NCBI GenBank assembly: GCA_965205865.1
Contig: CBDBHR010000030.1
Span: forward strand, 224,001 to 288,000
Length of the DNA stretch: 64,000 nucleotides
Direction of reading: 5' to 3'
Origin: a bacterium
Lineage (GTDB): Bacteria; SAR324; NAC60-12
Shown: positions 40,377-53,077 of the stretch, piece by piece
Layout of the letters: the number at the start of each line of letters is the position of its first letter
Position numbering within the stretch: the stretch's first letter is position 1
Made by a program: the position numbers and the translations under genes
The notes under the pieces: model-generated
The model's database searches: none
Told to the model about the DNA's origin: nothing
Seen by the model: the letters and a program-made list of their open reading frames with translations, nothing else

Positions 40377-40424
40377 AATACACCTCCATGTGTTTCGATA
40401 TTACTACACCCTAACCCGGTAAAT

Positions 40425-40789
40425 GGGTCAGGCTTGCAAGTTTGCGAATTTAAGAAAACATTTTTAGGTTAAGTTCTTTTAACCGCTCTTGGAGATTTGT
40501 GGATTCTTTCAATCTTTCTCTCAATTTATGCACTCTACGACTGAAAGTAGAATCATCTCGATTGAGAGCATTTGCCACTTCCCGGATTGTTGCAGATTCC
40601 AATTGAAGACTTATAAAAGCGACGAGAGTCGCTGTCATCGAAATAAGTACGTTGCCCCCCATTACCTCGAAGTATCACATGATAAAGCGTACCAGGGTCG
40701 TACAAACGCGTTTTCCGAGACATCTTGGCAAATTGAAAAAGGTTAAAATTTAAAAAATACTCATTTTTGCAAACTTGCAAGTCTGACCC
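40425..40789 (-). mobile_element. RAYT-derived mini-element, copy 1
   Basis: Inverted ends GGGTCAGGCTTGCAAGTTTGC / GCAAACTTGCAAGTCTGACCC. Minus strand encodes MSRKTRLYDPGTLYHVILRGN (Y1/RAYT N-terminus) joined to IREVANALNRDDSTFSRRV (HTH C-terminus). Confidence 0.88.
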
Positions 40790-41147
40790 CTTTTCCACGA
40801 TGAAGCATATTTTATTAGAAGCAATTGGACTCTTAACCCAAGTACCGCTTTTTTTTAAATCGGCATTTTTTAAACAAAGACAGAAGAAAAGTGAAAAAAA
40901 TTGAATAGGCCGTCTATCCCCCAAGAAACCTATCAAAAAATAGGAAAATTCCTCATGAATTTCTATTTACAAATCAATTTTCAGATGCTACTGTCTTGAA
41001 AATTTTTGATTTTCCTAAATGATATCGTGGCAGAAAAACTAATCTGATCGGTAAAAAAGGCCCGGAAAGAGACAAACTGGGTGGGGAGGTAGTCGCAATA
41101 CCAAAGACGGGTGGATTGTTGAAGACCGAAAAAACAATAAAAATCCT

Positions 41148-42888: not shown

Positions 42889-43220
42889 TCACATCTCCTT
42901 GCGGGAGGAAATCACGCGGTCGATCAGACCGAACGCCAAGGTTTCTTCTGCAGTAAACCAATTGTCGCGGTCGATAGCCATTTTGATTTCTTGATAGGTT
43001 TTACCGGTGGCCTGGTAGTAGATATCAATGATGAAATCCCGGGTTTTGAGGATTTCATTGGCTTGGATTTCGAGATCCGTGGCCCGCCCTTGATAGCTGG
43101 TTAAAAGCGGTTGGTGGATCATGATTTTGGAAAGGGAGAAGGCGAAACGACGGCTTTTGTTGGCAGCCAGACTGAGAATCGAGCCCATGCTGGCGGCAAA
43201 TCCGGCAACAATCGTCGTGA
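42889..43220 (-). pseudogene. C-terminal half of a ClpP protease gene, cut by mini-element copy 2
   Basis: GFAASMGS, IMIHQP and DRDNWFTAEE..FGLID motifs; the 5' half is absent. Confidence 0.85.
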
Positions 43221-43221
43221 A

Positions 43222-43570
43222 GGGGTCAGGCTTGCAAGTTTGCAATTTAAGAAAACATTATTAGGTTGAGTTCTATTAACCGCTCTTGGAGATTTGTGGA
43301 TTCCTTCAATCTTTCTCTCAACTTATGCACTCCACGACTGATAGTAGAATCATCTCGATTGAGAGCATTTGCCACTTCCCGGATTGTTGCAGATTTCCAA
43401 TCGAAGACTTATAAAAGCGACGAGAGTCGCTGTCGTCGAAAAAATACGTTGGCCCCCATTGCCTCGAAGTATCACATGTTAAAGCGTGCAAGGGTCGTAC
43501 AAACGCGTTTTCCGAGACATCTTGGCAAATTGAAAAATACCCATTTTTGCAAACTTGCACAGCCTGACCC
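43222..43570 (-). mobile_element. RAYT-derived mini-element, copy 2
   Basis: Same ends and interior as 40425..40789. Confidence 0.88.
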
Positions 43571-43815
43571 GGTTTCTTACGTATTGATGGAATAGTGTTT
43601 TTACCGTTTCACTTCTTGAACTTCATCAAGTGATTTCTTTTCTTTGTGGTTGACATGGATTTCTCTATAAACTATTTTTTGAACAGACATCATCTTTGAA
43701 CAGACATCATCGGGAATAAGTTCAGGGTGTGATTTCGCAAAAAAGGGGAAATCTTGAACGCTGTAAAATCAATGGTTAGGTGGTACGACGCGTTTCACAG
43801 ATCTGAGTGAATGCA

Positions 43816-44279: not shown

Positions 44280-45079
44280 ATGTCAGACCCAAAACACACT
44301 GCATACGAGCGTTTGAAGGAGCTTCACTCCGAAGCCGAATCGGCGACACACGCGTGGACAAAAATGGGAAATTTACTGAATGGCGTCAGAAAGTGCAGTC
44401 GGCACTGCGTCATTTGTTCGACGAGAATCGCCAACAACTCAAATCATTCAATTCCGTGCGTTATGTTCCACCTATGTTCTTAACGGGCATGCCGGACAGC
44501 GTGTTCCACAATTCATTCATAGGCGGTATGAAAACCGCTAGTGGAATCATACGCTCCGCAATTCAAGAATATGAGGATTACGAACAGCAAGCTGGTCACG
44601 ACGTCGATCACACTTCAGCCGACGGCAACTCTACCATCTCCCGTAAAGTTTTCGTCGTTCATGGTCACGACAACGAAATGAAGGAATCGGTCGCAAGATT
44701 CCTTGAGCGCCTCGACTTTGAAGCGGTCATTTTACACGAACAAGCAAGCGGCGGTGACACGATCATCGAGAAGTTTGAACGCAATGCGGACGTTAAATAT
44801 GCAGTCGTACTCTTGAGTCCGGATGACGTTGGCGCAGCAAAGGATAAATCCAATACACCGCAGCCAAGACCGCGCCAGAACGTAGTCTTTGAACTGGGCT
44901 ATTTCGTCGGGAAGCTTGGGCGGTCGCATGTCTGTCCACTGGTTCGTGAACCTCTGGAACGTCCGTCTGACATTCACGGTGTTGTCTACATCCCATTCGA
45001 CGAGGGGAATTGGAAGATTCATCTTGTCAAGGAACTCAAAAATCTTGGGTTCGAGGTCGACGCGAACAAGGCAGTCTAA
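44280..45079 (+). pseudogene. TIR-like nucleotide-binding domain protein (CAP12/Pycsar-type TIR), frameshifted
   Basis: VFVVHGHD, TIIEKFE, LLSPDD, RQNVVFELGYF and PSDIHG motifs. The N-terminus from ATG 44280 shifts frame near 44350. Confidence 0.75.
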
Positions 45080-46508: not shown

Positions 46509-46818
46509 GGGGTCAGGCTTGCAAGTTTGCGAATTTAAGAAAACATTTTTAGGTTGAGTTCTTTTAACCGCTCTTGGAGATTTGTGGATTCCTTCAATCT
46601 TTCTCTCAACTAATGCACTCCACGACTGAAAGTAGAATCATCTCGATTGAGAGCATTTGCCACTTCCCGGATTGTTGCAGATTTCCAATCGAAGACTGAT
46701 AAAAGCGACGAGAGTCGCTGTCATAGAAAAAATACGTTGGCCCCCATTGCCTGAAGTATCACATGTTAAAGCGTGCAAGGGTCGTACAAACACGTTTTCC
46801 GAGACATCTTGGCAAATT
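46509..46818 (-). mobile_element. RAYT-derived mini-element, copy 3 (right end missing)
   Basis: Left end and interior conserved; runs directly into the next copy at GGCAAATT/GTGAA. Confidence 0.85.
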
Positions 46819-46823
46819 GTGAA

Positions 46824-47828
46824 GGGGTCAGGCTGTGCGCCAGGAAAGCTGGCAAGAAATAGAGAGTGAAAGTCTCTTACTCGGTAAGGCAGTAACGACC
46901 CGCCGAGTCCCCGAGTCATGAGTGGTTATTCGCAAGGATAGGCGCTAAGCGTTGACAGGGGAGAACATAGGCTCGGTATTGAGCTCCGAAATCATAGTTT
47001 CAGGCGCTGACCTTGTGGTCTGGTGGGGAAGGCAATATCGACCGAAGGCGTTAGCGCGAGTCTCGGTCGAGCCTGGCGGAGTCAAAGACCCGGCGCATGT
47101 GTGGAAGTTTCTTGATCGGAACCTGGGAGATCCTGAAGACGACTGTCAACATTCCATTGGTAGTCGGATCGGGAAAATTAATAAATAACCCCGATATCTA
47201 CGTCTTCAGGAAGTCGGACAAGTTCGTAGTAGCGATGAAGCGGCGAACAATGAGATCATTTGCAGAGAGTAACAATGCAAAGGAAATCAACGGAGCCTGT
47301 GGAGCAAAGGGACTTGGCTGAGAGGAATTCTGCTTGCCCTCCTGTGTTCGTAACTCAGAGGCCGGTAAAATCAGAGAGCGGTTTAAGCAGGGTGCGCCAA
47401 ACGGCAACGTTTGAGCGTCTGACTCGAAGCAGGAGCCGGATGCGTTAGCAGCGCAGGTCCGGATCTGTACCGGAGGAATGACGAAAGGTGGCTGGAAACC
47501 ACTATAAGTCAGTTCTTTACGGTGACTGCAAGTTTGCAAATTTAAGAAAACATTTTTAGTTGGAGTTCTTTTAATCGCTCTTGGACATTTGTGGATTCCT
47601 TCAATCTTTCTCTCAACTTATTCACGCCACGACTGATAGTAGAATCATCTCGATTGAGAGCATTTGCCACTTCCCGGATTTTTGCAGATTTCCAATCAAA
47701 GACTGATAAAAACGACGAGAGTCGCTGCCATCGAAAAAAATATGTTGGCCCCCATTGCCTCGAAGTATTGCATGATAAAGCGTACCAGGGTCGTACAAAC
47801 GCGTTTTCCGAGACATCTTGGCAAATTG
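46824..47828 (-). mobile_element. RAYT-derived mini-element, copy 4, split by a group II intron
   Basis: GGGGTCAGGCT at 46824..46834 resumes as TGCAAGTTTGC at 47527. Confidence 0.88.
46835..47526 (+). mobile_element. Group II intron (family A, copy 2), ORF-less
   Basis: Starts GTGCG and ends GGTGAC; domain V GAGCCGGATGCGTTAGCAGCGCAGGTCCGGATC. Removing it restores the element terminal repeat exactly. Confidence 0.92.
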
Positions 47829-47832
47829 TGAC

Positions 47833-48199
47833 GGGGGCAGGCTTGCAAGTTTGCGAATTTAGGAAAACATTTTTAGGTTGAGTTCTTTTAACCGCTCTTG
47901 GAGATTTGTGGATTCCTTCAATCTTTCTCTCAAATTATACACTCCACGACTGAAAGTAGAATCATCTCGCTTGAGAGCATTTGCCTCTTCCCGGATTTTT
48001 GCGGATTTCCAATCAAAGACTAATAAAAACAACGAGAGTCGCTGTCATCGAAAAAAATACGATGGCCCCCATTGCCTCGAAGTATCACATTAAAAAGCGT
48101 ACCAGGGCCGTACAAACGCGTTTTCCGAGACATCTTGGCAAATTGAAAAAGGTTAAAATTTAAAGAATACCCATTTTTTCAAACTTGCAAGCCTGACCC
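47833..48199 (-). mobile_element. RAYT-derived mini-element, copy 5
   Basis: Both ends present (left end variant GGGGGCAGGCTTGC). Confidence 0.88.
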
Positions 48200-48243
48200 G
48201 TTTCTTGAAAATCTGATCCTTTTTTAGAATCGCTCAATTTAGG

Positions 48244-48267
48244 TATAAATCAGTTCTTTACGGTGAC
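48244..48267 (+). mobile_element. 3'-terminal remnant of a family A group II intron
   Basis: TATAAATCAGTTCTTTACGGTGAC followed by TGCA, as at 47527. Confidence 0.7.
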
Positions 48268-48497: not shown

Positions 48498-48770
48498 GTA
48501 TGCGGTAACGACCGCTCTTCTAGTGGGTTGAAGTCCCACCAAAGTAATTATCCGTTCGCTTTGTAGGCAACGGGAGCAGCGTGGGAGTAATCTGGGGTTG
48601 TAAGTTCCCGACGCCAAAACAACGGGCCGTAACGAAAGTGAACCTAGATGTAGCCTCGAAACTTGAGTCGAAAGCGCCGACCCTGTGGTCAGAAGGGAAA
48701 GGCTGTTATCTCACGAATTAGACAACGGATTTCTTCGTGAGGGTTTTCCGGGGTAGCAGGGATGGCACCG
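48498..48770 (+). mobile_element. Group II intron (family B), 5' domain I fragment only
   Basis: Begins GTATGCGG; GTGGGTTGAAGTCCCAC hairpin, CCGTAACGAAAGTGAA and GCCGAC...GAAAGGC domain I-like motifs; truncated. Confidence 0.7.
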
Positions 48771-49095: not shown

Positions 49096-49323
49096 ATGGC
49101 AACCGCGGTAAAACTATCAGATGATCTTTATGAAAAAGCAAAGATTCAATCAAAGGTTTTTAAAAGGTCTATTGCTGGTCAAATTGAATACTGGGCAAAA
49201 ATAGGACAAATGATTGAAGAAAATCCCGACCTCCCACTTCCGTTTATTCAAGACATTCTGGTCGGAAGAGAACAGATAAAATCAGGTCAAGGCGCTCCGT
49301 ATGTATTTGGAGAGGGTGAATGA
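49096..49323 (+). CDS. ParD-like antitoxin
   Basis: MATAVKLSDDL...RSIAGQIEYWAKIG..IEENPDLP family signature; AAGGAG RBS. Confidence 0.85.
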   Translation: MATAVKLSDDLYEKAKIQSKVFKRSIAGQIEYWAKIGQMIEENPDLPLPFIQDILVGREQIKSGQGAPYVFGEGE

Positions 49324-49610
49324 CCCGGATTACAGAAATAATCCAGTCACCTATTTTTGAAAAACAGAAAAAGAAACTGCGCAAACCGCAGATTAAAGAC
49401 CTGGATAAGGCTGTAAAGTCTATCTCCAATGATCCTACAATCGGAGATATGAAAGTAGGAGATCTGAGGGGTATCCAAGTTTATAAGTACGAATCAAAAA
49501 ATCAGCAGATCCTTTTAGCCTATGAAGTAATTGATTCAACTTTATTTTTATATACGTTTGGATCACATGAAAACTTTTATCGAGATCTGAAAAAATACCT
49601 TCAACGATAA
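49320..49610 (+). CDS. RelE/ParE-family toxin
   Basis: PTIGDMKVGDLRGIQVYK...LLAY...GSHENFYRDLK; ATGA overlap with the antitoxin. Confidence 0.85.
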   Translation: MTRITEIIQSPIFEKQKKKLRKPQIKDLDKAVKSISNDPTIGDMKVGDLRGIQVYKYESKNQQILLAYEVIDSTLFLYTFGSHENFYRDLKKYLQR

Positions 49611-49762: not shown

Positions 49763-49876
49763 AATCCTGCCCAAAACTCATCGATACTTTTTCTTTTTCT
49801 CCTCGACGACTCCGTTTATTCGGTATTCCGTGTTCTTGCTCCGCTCAATGCCCTCATAATTCTGGTTTTCATGAAA

Positions 49877-50241
49877 GGGTCAGGCTTGCAAGTTTGCGAA
49901 TTTAAGAAAACGTTTTTAGGTTGAATTCTTTTAACCGCTCTTGGAGATTTGAGAATTCCTTCAATCTTTCTCTCAACTTATGCGTGCCACGACTGATAGT
50001 AGAATCATCTCGATTGAGAGCATTTGCCACTTCCCGGATTGTTGCGGATTTCCAATCGAAGACTGATAAAAGCGAAGAGAGTCGCTGTCATCGAAAAAAA
50101 TACGTTGGCCTCCATTGCCTCGAAGTATCACATGATAAAGCGTACCAGGGTCGTACAAACGCGTTTTCCGAGACATCTTGGCAAATTGAAAAAGGTTAAA
50201 ATTTAAAAAATACTCTTTTTTGCAAACTTGCAAGCCTGACC
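49877..50241 (-). mobile_element. RAYT-derived mini-element, copy 6
   Basis: Both ends and interior conserved. Confidence 0.88.
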
Positions 50242-50336
50242 ACGTTTGACCCCGTTTCAAGCGCTGTCTATCAGGATGAAAAACCTTTCGCGGCCGAGCC
50301 GATCTTTTCCCCATTAAAAACCATGAGTCATAGGCG

Positions 50337-51453: not shown

Positions 51454-52726
51454 TTAACCGACCTTGGGAATATCGCTCCACCCTGCCAGGTATCGCGGGG
51501 ATTTGTGAGACTGTTTCATTTTCCATGATTTGTCGTAAACCCCGCATGAGGCGACTCTCAGTGTCATGGGACCTTCTTTTTGATTGATGCGATCCATGGC
51601 CTTCATGAGGGCGACATCCTTTTCCGAATCACCTTTCTCGATGAATGATAGTTGAATGGATGATTTATCCCGGATGTCGGACAACTTCACTAGAGCTTTT
51701 TTATATTCGTACCCCTCCCTGTAGAGCCGTTCGAGCACGGAGAGAGCATATTTGATCACTTTCCTCGTATCTGCCGTCTGCGAGAGAGATCGTTTTGAAT
51801 CCACCGCATAATACTGGGGGGTATTTTTAAAGGGGTTGGTCCTGATCCAGACTTCGACCGAGGAGCATACCGAACTTTGTTTTCTTAATTTTTCACAGGC
51901 AACCGAGGCGTAATTGGAAACCGCCTCACGCAAGCTCTCGAGGTCATAGACGGCATCTCCGAAGGTACGGCTACTGAGAATTTCTTTTTTCTTTTGCACT
52001 TCGAGTTCGAGTTCGAAGCAAGGATTTCCTCGTAATTCTTCCTGTATTTTCCTGCCGACAATGGAAGTTTTTTTGCGGACCAGGCCTTCATTCTTGAAAT
52101 CCCTGAAATCCCTTGCCGTTCTGATCCGGAGTTTTCTGAATCTACGCCCAATTTGCCGTCCGACCCCCCAAACCTCCTCGACGTCCAGTTGTTGGAGGAT
52201 TTTATCTTGTTGCCGCGTATTCATAACTGAAACCACTCCTCCGCTGGAGTCGTGTTTTTTAGCATAAGCATTGGCTGCTTTCGCCAGCACCTTGGTGGGG
52301 CCGATACCGATGCTCACCGGAATTCCCGTATCGCGCTCCACGATTTTTTTGATTTCCATCCCGTATTCATGGAGCCCCCACTTTTCGTACCCGCCACAGG
52401 TTCAAAAATGCTTCATCCACCGAGTAAATTTCCAGTTCCGGCGTAAACCGGCTGAGGGTGATCATCACTCGATCGCTCATATTGATATATAAACTGAAAT
52501 TAGAGCTGAAGACGGCTACCTTGTTTTTTTCGCAAATATCCCGGTATTTAAAAAAAGGAGCGCCCATCGGAATGCCGAGTTTTTTCAGTTCCACCGTTCT
52601 GGAGACGAAGCAGCCGTCGTTGTTGGAAAGGACGCCGACAGGGAGACCGAGAAGATCAGGTCTGAACAATCGCTCGCAGGCGCAGTAGAATGCGTTGCAG
52701 TCCACCAGGGCAAATACTTTATTCAT
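51454..52726 (-). pseudogene. umuC: Y-family DNA polymerase V subunit UmuC, frameshifted
   Basis: ALVDCNAFY, VLSNNDGC, YSVDEAF and W.MKQ..KSPRY motifs; frameshift near 52395. Confidence 0.88.
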
Positions 52727-53077
52727 TCAGATTTCTCGCACGATCGCTACCACGACACCCCAAACTCTTGCTTCCAATTCGTTTGAGACATGTATATCTC
52801 GATAGTCTTGGTTGTCGGATCTCAGTATGATGCCTTTTCCAAAGCGAAATATTCGTTTGCAGAGCAGTTCTCCCTCGAATGCGACAACTGCCACCCGGCC
52901 GTCAACTCTGTCGATACTGCGGTCGACCACTAAAATGTCGTTTTCGAAAATGAGAGGCGCCATTGTGTTGCAGGTAGCCTTGAAGAAGAAAGTGGACGTC
53001 TTGTTTTTGACAAAACGCTCGTCGAGCGATTGATATTTTTCAATGAAATCATCATGAATACCAAACAATCCCATCAT
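52727..53077 (-). CDS. umuD: UmuD-like S24 peptidase
   Basis: TFFFKA...DILVVDRS...GELLCKR...VWGVV; the usual GDSM motif reads CNTM. Confidence 0.8.
   Translation of the reverse strand: MMGLFGIHDDFIEKYQSLDERFVKNKTSTFFFKATCNTMAPLIFENDILVVDRSIDRVDGRVAVVAFEGELLCKRIFRFGKGIILRSDNQDYRDIHVSNELEARVWGVVVAIVREI

Follow-up and report, generated by a model that had tools for sequence, protein, structure and literature searches.

A 692-nt group II intron without an open reading frame (ORF) lies on the forward strand at positions 46835–47526 of a 64-kb window (C30:224001–288000, the whole stretch analysed) of a SAR324 bacterial genome comprising 4.74 Mb in 30 contigs with 48% G+C. The intron interrupts the terminal inverted repeat of a small mobile element, and we consider it very likely that it is a deletion derivative of a mobile, IIB-like, endonuclease-less intron that reverse-spliced into the ends of RAYT-like elements, named after REP-associated tyrosine transposases (REP, repetitive extragenic palindromic). 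Coordinates are those of the window unless prefixed with a contig.

The repeat is split between its outer and inner parts. The 5' exon, GGGGTCAGGCT (46824–46834, + strand), is the outer block of the terminal inverted repeat and ends in intron-binding site 1 (IBS1), CAGGCT (46829–46834). The intron, GUGCG...GGUGAC, follows directly, and the 3' exon, TGCAAGTTTGC (47527–47537, + strand), is the inner part of the same terminal repeat and runs on into the body of the mini-element. A preliminary description of this DNA had read the locus in the same way, and all of its coordinates hold. About 1 kb away, at 47833–47854 on the same strand, lies an unoccupied paralogue of the homing site in which GGGGGCAGGCT passes directly into TGCAAGTTTGC. 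Once the intron is removed from the locus, the resulting 27-mer is found at 28 places in the genome with at most two mismatches, and a junction-spanning 19-mer occurs nine times in the window with at most three mismatches, compared with 0.02 occurrences expected. The uninterrupted copy at 47833–47854 and the recurrence of the 19-mer therefore establish that the insertion is exact to the base.

The interrupting sequence is a group II intron. The Rfam family RF02005 (group-II-D1D4-6; cut-off 49 bits) matches the conserved domain I core at 46869–47091 over the full length of the model (1–225 of 225) with 173.2 bits and an E value of 2e-50. The termini, GUGCG at 46835 and ...GAC at 47526, fit the 5' GUGYG and 3' AY of group II introns. 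RNAfold places a putative domain V at 47433–47465, with a 2-nt GG bulge, the upper helix UGCGUU/AGCGCA and the AGC triad opposite GAU, and domain VI at 47468–47526, where A47519, the eighth base from the 3' end, is left unpaired between two helices and the 3' tail AC closes the intron. The designation as ORF-less likewise stands: the only coding trace is a 62-aa frame in domain IV (47260–47448, + strand) that starts at a TTG, contains no reverse transcriptase domain and opens with the first ~43 residues of the intron-encoded protein (IEP) of full-length relatives, whose ATG corresponds to 47275. The 692-nt form equals the 1957-nt full-length intron of this genome minus ~1265 nt of the IEP gene. 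Since that gene is reduced to the 62-aa remnant, the copy at 46835–47526 is non-autonomous.

The exon-binding site 1 (EBS1) had been predicted correctly as GGUCUG at 47017–47022. According to the structure line of the Rfam alignment, it lies in the nine-base terminal loop GUGGUCUGG of a conserved hairpin, GCUGACCUU-GUGGUCUGG-UGGGGAAGGC, and it pairs with CAGGCT at all six positions, by four Watson-Crick and two G-U pairs. We compared loop bases 3–8 with exon positions −6 to −1 for the window intron and 20 loci of relatives with a placed 5' junction. All six positions pair in 17 of these 21 intron-exon pairs from different genomes and at least five in 20, compared with a mean of 3.0 and a 6/6 rate of 5% among 402 control cross-pairings between different introns and exons. 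The sole failure, locus L028, is nested in another intron, and the splice-site call there is possibly wrong. The loop thus covaries with the exon across genomes. Between the two EBS1 alleles and the last exon base there is at most a slight tendency (AGUCUG before T in 7 and C in 3 cases; GGUCUG before T in 14 and C in 9). A search for EBS2 returned no alignment column pairing with exon positions −6 to −14 in more than 6 of 19 sequences, whether in 6-nt or in 4–5-nt windows, and inspection of the first domain I hairpin revealed no consistent partner for exon −7 to −14. One EBS2 candidate, GACCC at intron positions 63–67, would pair with GGGTC; it was dropped since the relative L010 keeps GACCC at a GGGAC end.

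The split repeat belongs to a large population of repeat ends. GGTCAGGCY occurs at 211 sites in the genome, compared with roughly 60 expected by our own estimate from base composition, and 40 inverted pairs of this motif lie between 48 bp and 3 kb apart. The pairs recur at fixed distances of 48–83 bp (ten of them at 76–77 bp, of the TTTGATTA family), 363–365 bp (seven pairs), 1029, 1044 and 1202 bp. Both the 1202-bp element and the 1044-bp element, of which three copies are intact, code for a protein of ~310–320 aa. In Pfam, the protein of the 1044-bp element scores 53.8 bits for Y1_Tnp (cut-off 23) and 32.7 bits for Bac_DnaA_C (cut-off 31.5), and in the 312-aa protein an HVH and a downstream RYIHLNP, the Y1 HUH motifs, can be read directly. 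Its best NCBIfam match is the REP-associated tyrosine transposase (REP_Tyr_transpos), at 71.1 bits and under the cut-off of 80. Because of this sub-threshold score and the DnaA_C domain, we refer to the elements as RAYT-like. Classical RAYTs are single-copy, domesticated genes, whereas the three intact 1044-bp copies and the other families point to a behaviour closer to that of insertion sequences.

The host units in general are 1.0–1.2 kb long, code for a Y1 HUH transposase joined to the C-terminal helix-turn-helix of DnaA and carry inverted repeats of 20–30 bp (for example C29:722038–723081, C26:138256–139457 and C4:25434–26462), with 363-bp internal-deletion and 48–83-bp doublet derivatives. 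At least six element families share an outer GGGGTCAGGCY block and differ in the subterminal repeat. Some full ends are directly preceded by 'stuttered' partial copies of themselves, AAAGGGGGTCA-AAAGGGGGTCAGGCT or GAAATGGGGTCAGGCT-GAAATGGGGTCAGGCT, as in the flanks of C29:718096, C30:568363 and C26:286295 and at C16:13797–13822.

The 1029-bp element (C4:25434–26462), a member of the TGCAAGTTTGC family, carries the same gene with a frameshift near its start, and the 363-bp elements in the window retain the first 50–64 and the last ~40 codons of the RAYT-like gene. These remnant frames have no Pfam match and were identified by comparison with the 1029-bp copy. By this comparison, the mini-element of the preliminary description is an internal-deletion derivative of a RAYT-like element, and the split repeat is its terminal inverted repeat. 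Examples of host elements in the window lie at 40424–40790, 43222–43590, 46509–48200 and 49876–50243. The region at 46509–48200 is an array of three tandem mini RAYT-like elements of ~330 bp (the inverted pair C30:270511–272198, 1688 bp), with left ends at 46509, 46824 and 47833 and a single right end at 48178–48200 on the reverse strand; the intron sits in the left end of the middle element. Remnant N- and C-terminal RAYT frames on the reverse strand of the array match the ends of the C4:25434–26462 copy.

The intron is one of many in this genome. RF02005 has 44 matches above cut-off, and a BLAST search with the 692-nt intron returned 46 pieces, comprising 16 ORF-less copies (689–703 nt), five full-length copies (1957 nt in four cases, 2039 nt in the fifth), three twintrons (~1600 nt), seven other deletion forms, ten 5'-only pieces and five 3'-only pieces. 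Identity among copies is mostly 96–100%, also between ORF-less copies and the ribozyme parts of the 1957-nt copies; the ORF-less ribozyme is the same as in the ORF-bearing siblings, and the 16 ORF-less copies occupy different sites. Four of the five full-length copies retain an open 470-aa frame. The encoded IEP matches TIGR04416 (NCBIfam group_II_RT_mat) with 342.7 bits (cut-off 300), has only RVT_1 in Pfam and ends after the maturase region, without an endonuclease domain. In the twintrons (C30:1205902–1207500, C29:627016–628615 and C28:326218–327823; locus L002), a nested intron of ~905 nt, matching RF02003 at 33 bits and below cut-off, sits at position 400 of the outer intron.

Two further members of the family had been proposed in the window. 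The copy on the reverse strand at 557–1276 is real (RF02005, 154.1 bits at 1020–1242), and its 5' exon ends in ...TGGGTCAGGCT. It is 720 nt long, starts with AUGCG instead of GUGCG, keeps two IEP fragments and runs into a 3' exon (CTTTTGC...) unrelated to the repeat. The piece at 48244–48267 (+ strand) does consist of the last 24 nt of an intron of this family, with one mismatch, and the TGCATACTTGCG that it abuts is the interior of a second repeat family (TGCATAYTTG), not the repeat split at 46835–47526.

Across the genome, 35 of 41 5' junctions follow CAGGCY and 28 of them follow GGTCAGGCY, and +1 is a T at 30 of 36 3' junctions. The 3' exons fall into the families TTTGATTA..., TGCAAGTTTGC..., TGCATAYTKG..., TGAAAGTTTGG..., TCGTTA... 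and TGYGACTTTGGG..., each of which is also found uninterrupted and then always behind GGGGTCAGGCY. Among the 30 complete copies (a 31st, a tandem intron, was set apart), 13 are in the TTTGATTA family and one, that at 46835–47526, is in TGCAAGTTTGC; for 20 of the 30, the intron-removed 27-mer matches between 1 and 31 uninterrupted places in the genome. Either element end can serve as the target, and in every case the intron is oriented from that end towards the interior.

These counts also bear on how much sequence the intron recognises. An intron that required only an IBS1 match, CAGGCY, and a following T would hit element ends merely because the heptamer is common there, and the ends would not be a dedicated target. 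EBS1 indeed spans only six bases and the search for EBS2 came back empty; moreover, 7 of the 35 CAGGCY insertions lack the preceding GGT and some sites are not recognisable repeats. Against such an account, however, of the 1168 CAGGCY^T heptamers that are free, GGT precedes just 143 (12%), compared with 28 of the 35 that are occupied (80%; binomial p = 8e-20, with the reservation that the copies are not fully independent). In other genera, furthermore, GG(A/T)C is retained at −9 to −6, and changes in the inner 5 nt of the end are matched by changes in the loop. We therefore regard recognition of IBS1 alone as improbable; the site preference extends beyond the six bases read by EBS1. The proposal that the RAYT end is the homing site of this intron is supported, although the target is not specific to the mini-element: the counts support as the probable homing site a 9–11-nt block, (G)GGTCAGGCY, plus T at +1, which is found in the terminal inverted repeats of at least six families.

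The distribution of copies could alternatively reflect transposition or duplication of the host elements, with the introns carried along passively rather than inserted by repeated retrohoming. Identical flanks of two copies at C28:358767 and C29:409363, and of two (L046 and L049) in genome G003, fit such a history, as does the head-to-tail pair C26:239009/239712. Yet insertions at either element end are seen in six or more repeat families, and their outer flanks are unrelated. Like ends are also occupied by different length forms: TGAAAGTTTGG follows a 689-nt copy as well as a 1957-nt one. Passive spread as the general explanation is thus very improbable. The head-to-tail pair itself, which covers C26:239009–240179, has its second intron starting right after the GGTGAC of the first, like the tandem product of RmInt2.

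A different question is whether the copy at 46835–47526, once inserted by retrohoming, has become an inert relic that is no longer spliced or mobile. It has no IEP, and its orientation antisense to the remnant RAYT frames of the array makes it dependent on outside transcription; the contigs of public sequencing runs, which are uninformative on this point, showed no spliced joint. On the other hand, it retains an intact 5' GUGCG, EBS1, domain V, bulged A and 3' end, and its 692 nt differ at one position from the copy at C25:20780–21471 (99.86% identity), which points to a recent event; the genome also contains four intact IEP genes. We consider it rather unlikely that this particular copy is a relic.

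Several observations weigh against a retrohoming intron with RAYT-like ends as its target and have to be set beside this evidence. Six of the 41 5' exons depart from CAGGCY, namely one head-to-tail pair and five sites with one or two changes, and 10 of the 30 complete copies have no uninterrupted site paralogue. Some copies share flanks and may be segmental duplicates (the C28:358767 and C29:409363 copies and the two in G003). No EBS2 was found that would read exon positions −7 to −11. The Rfam model of domains V–VI, RF00029, reaches only 31 bits (E = 0.003; cut-off 40) on sibling copies with an identical 3' end and was absent at E ≤ 1 from a scan of a 10-kb window. In domain V, the triad G faces an A (G.A) where G.U is usual; this feature is common to all RF02005 relatives examined (L004–L037; GAGCCG...CGGAUC). 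Finally, contigs of four public runs (three RNA libraries and one of unknown kind) contain the intron family and no joint across the intron, a result that is uninformative on splicing and transcription.

We hypothesize that the intron RNA forms a complex with the protein that an intact sibling provides and inserts by reverse splicing into (G)GGTCAGGCY^T. Exon positions −1 to −6 would be read by EBS1, which lies in a hairpin loop of domain I, and at least three further bases upstream (at least −7 to −9) would contribute to recognition besides EBS1. Synthesis of cDNA would presumably be primed at the replication fork, as in other endonuclease-less introns. The inverted terminal repeats would offer a site on both strands, one of them always on the favourable template. 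With the block common to several element families and present on both strands of every element, landing sites in the genome number well over 100. The ORF-less copies, not mobile by themselves, would presumably depend for splicing and mobilisation on the IEP of the four 1957-nt siblings whose 470-aa frame is intact.

We extended the comparison to 38 loci of IEP relatives in other genomes, where the ribozymes were located with Rfam, and built a quick maximum-likelihood tree of 23 intron proteins, leaving out L028, L029 and L034 (broken frames of <380 aa) and L035 (a near-copy of L037). The IEP of this genome belongs to a clade with an SH-aLRT support of 100 that also includes proteins from a deltaproteobacterial metagenome-assembled genome (MAG), Endozoicomonas, a Spongiibacteraceae MAG, Candidatus Thiodiazotropha, Psychrobium and a further gammaproteobacterial MAG. 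Where the 5' exons of this clade could be placed, they are A-rich, followed by GG(A/T)C at −9 to −6 and then by five bases matched to the loop (AAAGGACACCCA, CAGGGACAGGCA, AAGGGACAGGCA and GGGGACACACA); one Thiodiazotropha copy has GTAC in place of GG(A/T)C. In a genome of the same genus, a 90% identical intron lies at GGGGTCTGGCT, the end homologous to that of the 1044-bp elements, and in another genus of the bacterial family an intron with the loop UGGCUG sits at AAGGACAGCCA. A search with the 692-nt query did not detect the intron in 23 of 25 related genomes.

In some of these genomes the end lies beside a RAYT-like gene. In Psychrobium, the end occurs 14 times compared with once for the reversed control and forms four inverted pairs 110 bp apart; an unoccupied end is present at L036. 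A gene whose product starts MTRARHQLID follows the intron at two of three Psychrobium loci, and its L037 copy has marginal Y1/RAYT scores (Pfam 19.8 bits, NCBIfam 16.3 bits). At one of three Thiodiazotropha copies, the intron is followed by a gene for a 341-aa protein. This protein scores below threshold for RAYT in NCBIfam (37 bits, E = 2e-9), and BLASTP aligned two short stretches of it with the RAYT-like protein of the present genome; searches of Pfam and of PDB sequences gave no match for it.

The association fades outside the clade. Planctomycete introns, in the other half of the tree, lie at GGGGGACAGGCG, and 80 nt downstream of one of them is an imperfect inverted end. In the planctomycete genome, the exact 12-mer end is limited to six occurrences, all in forward orientation, and this case is no more than suggestive of a RAYT-end target. 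Relatives in Acidobacteria, Verrucomicrobia and other groups, as well as plasmid copies from Sinorhizobium, Burkholderia and Pseudomonas (52–55% identity, annotated only as ltrA), sit in unrelated exons without the block and with no Y1 gene nearby. The expectation that homologous introns share this kind of exon is thus borne out for the IEP clade, at GG(A/T)C ends that in some cases adjoin RAYT-like genes, but not for more distant members of RF02005. Tentatively, and with less than even confidence, we suggest that the clade may long have lived as a specialised parasite on RAYT/REPIN-type HUH elements (REPIN, REP doublet forming hairpins) in Delta- and Gammaproteobacteria, and possibly Planctomycetes. 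It would keep recognition of the constant GG(A/T)C of the element end and retune EBS1 to the five bases that come next in each host element.

The closest described parallel is RmInt2, a class D intron of Sinorhizobium meliloti GR4 that homes into both inverted repeats of ISRm17, with every copy in the left or the right one (Martinez-Rodriguez et al. 2014, PMC4615759; PMC5894124); its authors reason that, with the target available on either strand, the lagging-strand template is certain to offer a site (PMC5894124), and priming at the replication fork was demonstrated experimentally for RmInt1 and RmInt2 (PMC4615759). Like RmInt2, the intron described here lacks an endonuclease, occupies inverted repeats of transposable elements and thereby has a target on both strands, and forms head-to-tail copies. 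Unlike in RmInt2, the hosts here are Y1 HUH (RAYT-like) elements and their miniatures, in several families with nothing but the outer block in common; there are more ORF-less than autonomous copies; and we infer mobility. The lineage, RF02005 here, is a different one, and the best S. meliloti plasmid match to the IEP is 52% identical. RmInt1 has its natural homing site inside the abundant ISRm2011-2 (IS630 family) and also uses ectopic sites with a similar IBS (PMC5894124). It resembles the present intron in being multicopy and endonuclease-less with a homing site in an abundant mobile element, and differs in that its target is internal to one family of insertion sequences (IS) and not a terminal repeat.

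Class C (IIC) introns insert at terminators and attC sites and recognise an upstream stem-loop (Zimmerly and Semper 2015, PMC4424553). The present intron shares with them the lack of an endonuclease and the use of abundant repeats, which include, for IIC introns, the imperfect inverted repeats of another mobile system. The upstream sequence, A-rich and then GGGG without a hairpin, and the 6-nt IBS1 do not fit the preceding stem-loop and very short IBS1 of IIC introns. The best Rfam family here, D1D4-6, also differs from the one that we take to represent IIC introns. Families of ORF-less introns in Thermosynechococcus elongatus, attributed to work of Mohr, Ghanem and Lambowitz in 2010, reportedly comprise dozens of copies of one lineage, with ORF-less derivatives that presumably use the protein of a sibling, and include twintrons. 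Those introns reportedly have an IEP with an endonuclease, and they differ from the present ones in lineage and in targets.

REP sequences have been described as targets of insertion sequences, and two of nine group II introns of Pseudomonas putida KT2440 are REP-associated (Tobes and Pareja 2006, PMC1525189). There, as here, REP-type repeats draw other mobile elements; in contrast to the 28 of 41 junctions at one exact position in the present genome, the P. putida account gives a minority association without a defined junction or pairing. Lists of targets for bacterial group II introns usually name long homing sites, terminators and attC sites (PMC4424553). The literature searched, which lacks most subscription journals, contained no description of a RAYT- or REP-type end as a dedicated group II intron target. 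The preliminary suggestion that the target was undescribed thus needs to be narrowed: homing into inverted repeats of transposable elements is published for RmInt2 and ISRm17, but a RAYT-type end was not found in the literature searched. What is new here is the RAYT-type host, an end block common to several element families, and the clade-wide conservation with retuning of the loop.

The window also contains part of a different RF02005 intron, 'B' (48498–48763, + strand; 73.5 bits, match at 48530–48763). Only its 5' part remains. It follows ...TGCAAGCCTGACC (...GCAAGCCTGACC), the opposite strand of the repeat end, and its loop GGUCAG pairs at six of six positions with CUGACC; the other end of its 230-bp element holds the 24-nt remnant of the A-type intron. 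Further pieces of intron B lie at C25:64080–64187 and C16:6077–6262. We rejected the idea that intron B is a second, opposite-strand specialist, because only one of its two 5' junctions is at a repeat end; the C25 copy follows ...ATTTGACC, where there is no repeat end.

Other genes surround these elements. A ClpP-family frame at 42889–43245 on the reverse strand (Pfam CLP_protease, profile positions 70–181 of 182) runs into the mini-element end at 43222 and looks truncated by the insertion; no N-terminal part was noticed beyond the mini-element. At 44600–45079 (+ strand), a 422-aa frame resembles the CAP12/Pycsar effector TIR domain in its C-terminal part (135 bits) and may be a defence gene. 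Two genes overlapping by 4 bases, one for a ParD-like antitoxin (72 bits), the other for a ParE-like toxin (97 bits), lie at 49096–49610 (+ strand), between the truncated intron B and the next mini-element. On the reverse strand at 51454–53077, a UmuD-like gene (Peptidase_S24) precedes one for a Y-family polymerase (IMS, IMS_C, DUF4113), which falls into two frames at ~52360, possibly owing to a stop or a frameshift.

A block that is common to the ends of RAYT-like HUH elements and of their miniatures would add a further kind of homing site borne by mobile elements. If a specialised association of this sort exists, both partners would act on single-stranded DNA at replication forks. Each insertion would part the outer end of an element from the rest, and the intron may act as a brake on these elements. 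Joint changes, from genus to genus, of the element end and of the loop that pairs with the exon form a clean natural series, which offers a handle on what recognises positions −7 to −11 without a detectable EBS2 and on whether such introns limit the spread of REP-type repeats. For annotation, introns of this kind are to be expected to break REP repeats, those of miniature inverted-repeat transposable elements (MITEs), and assemblies in comparable genomes.

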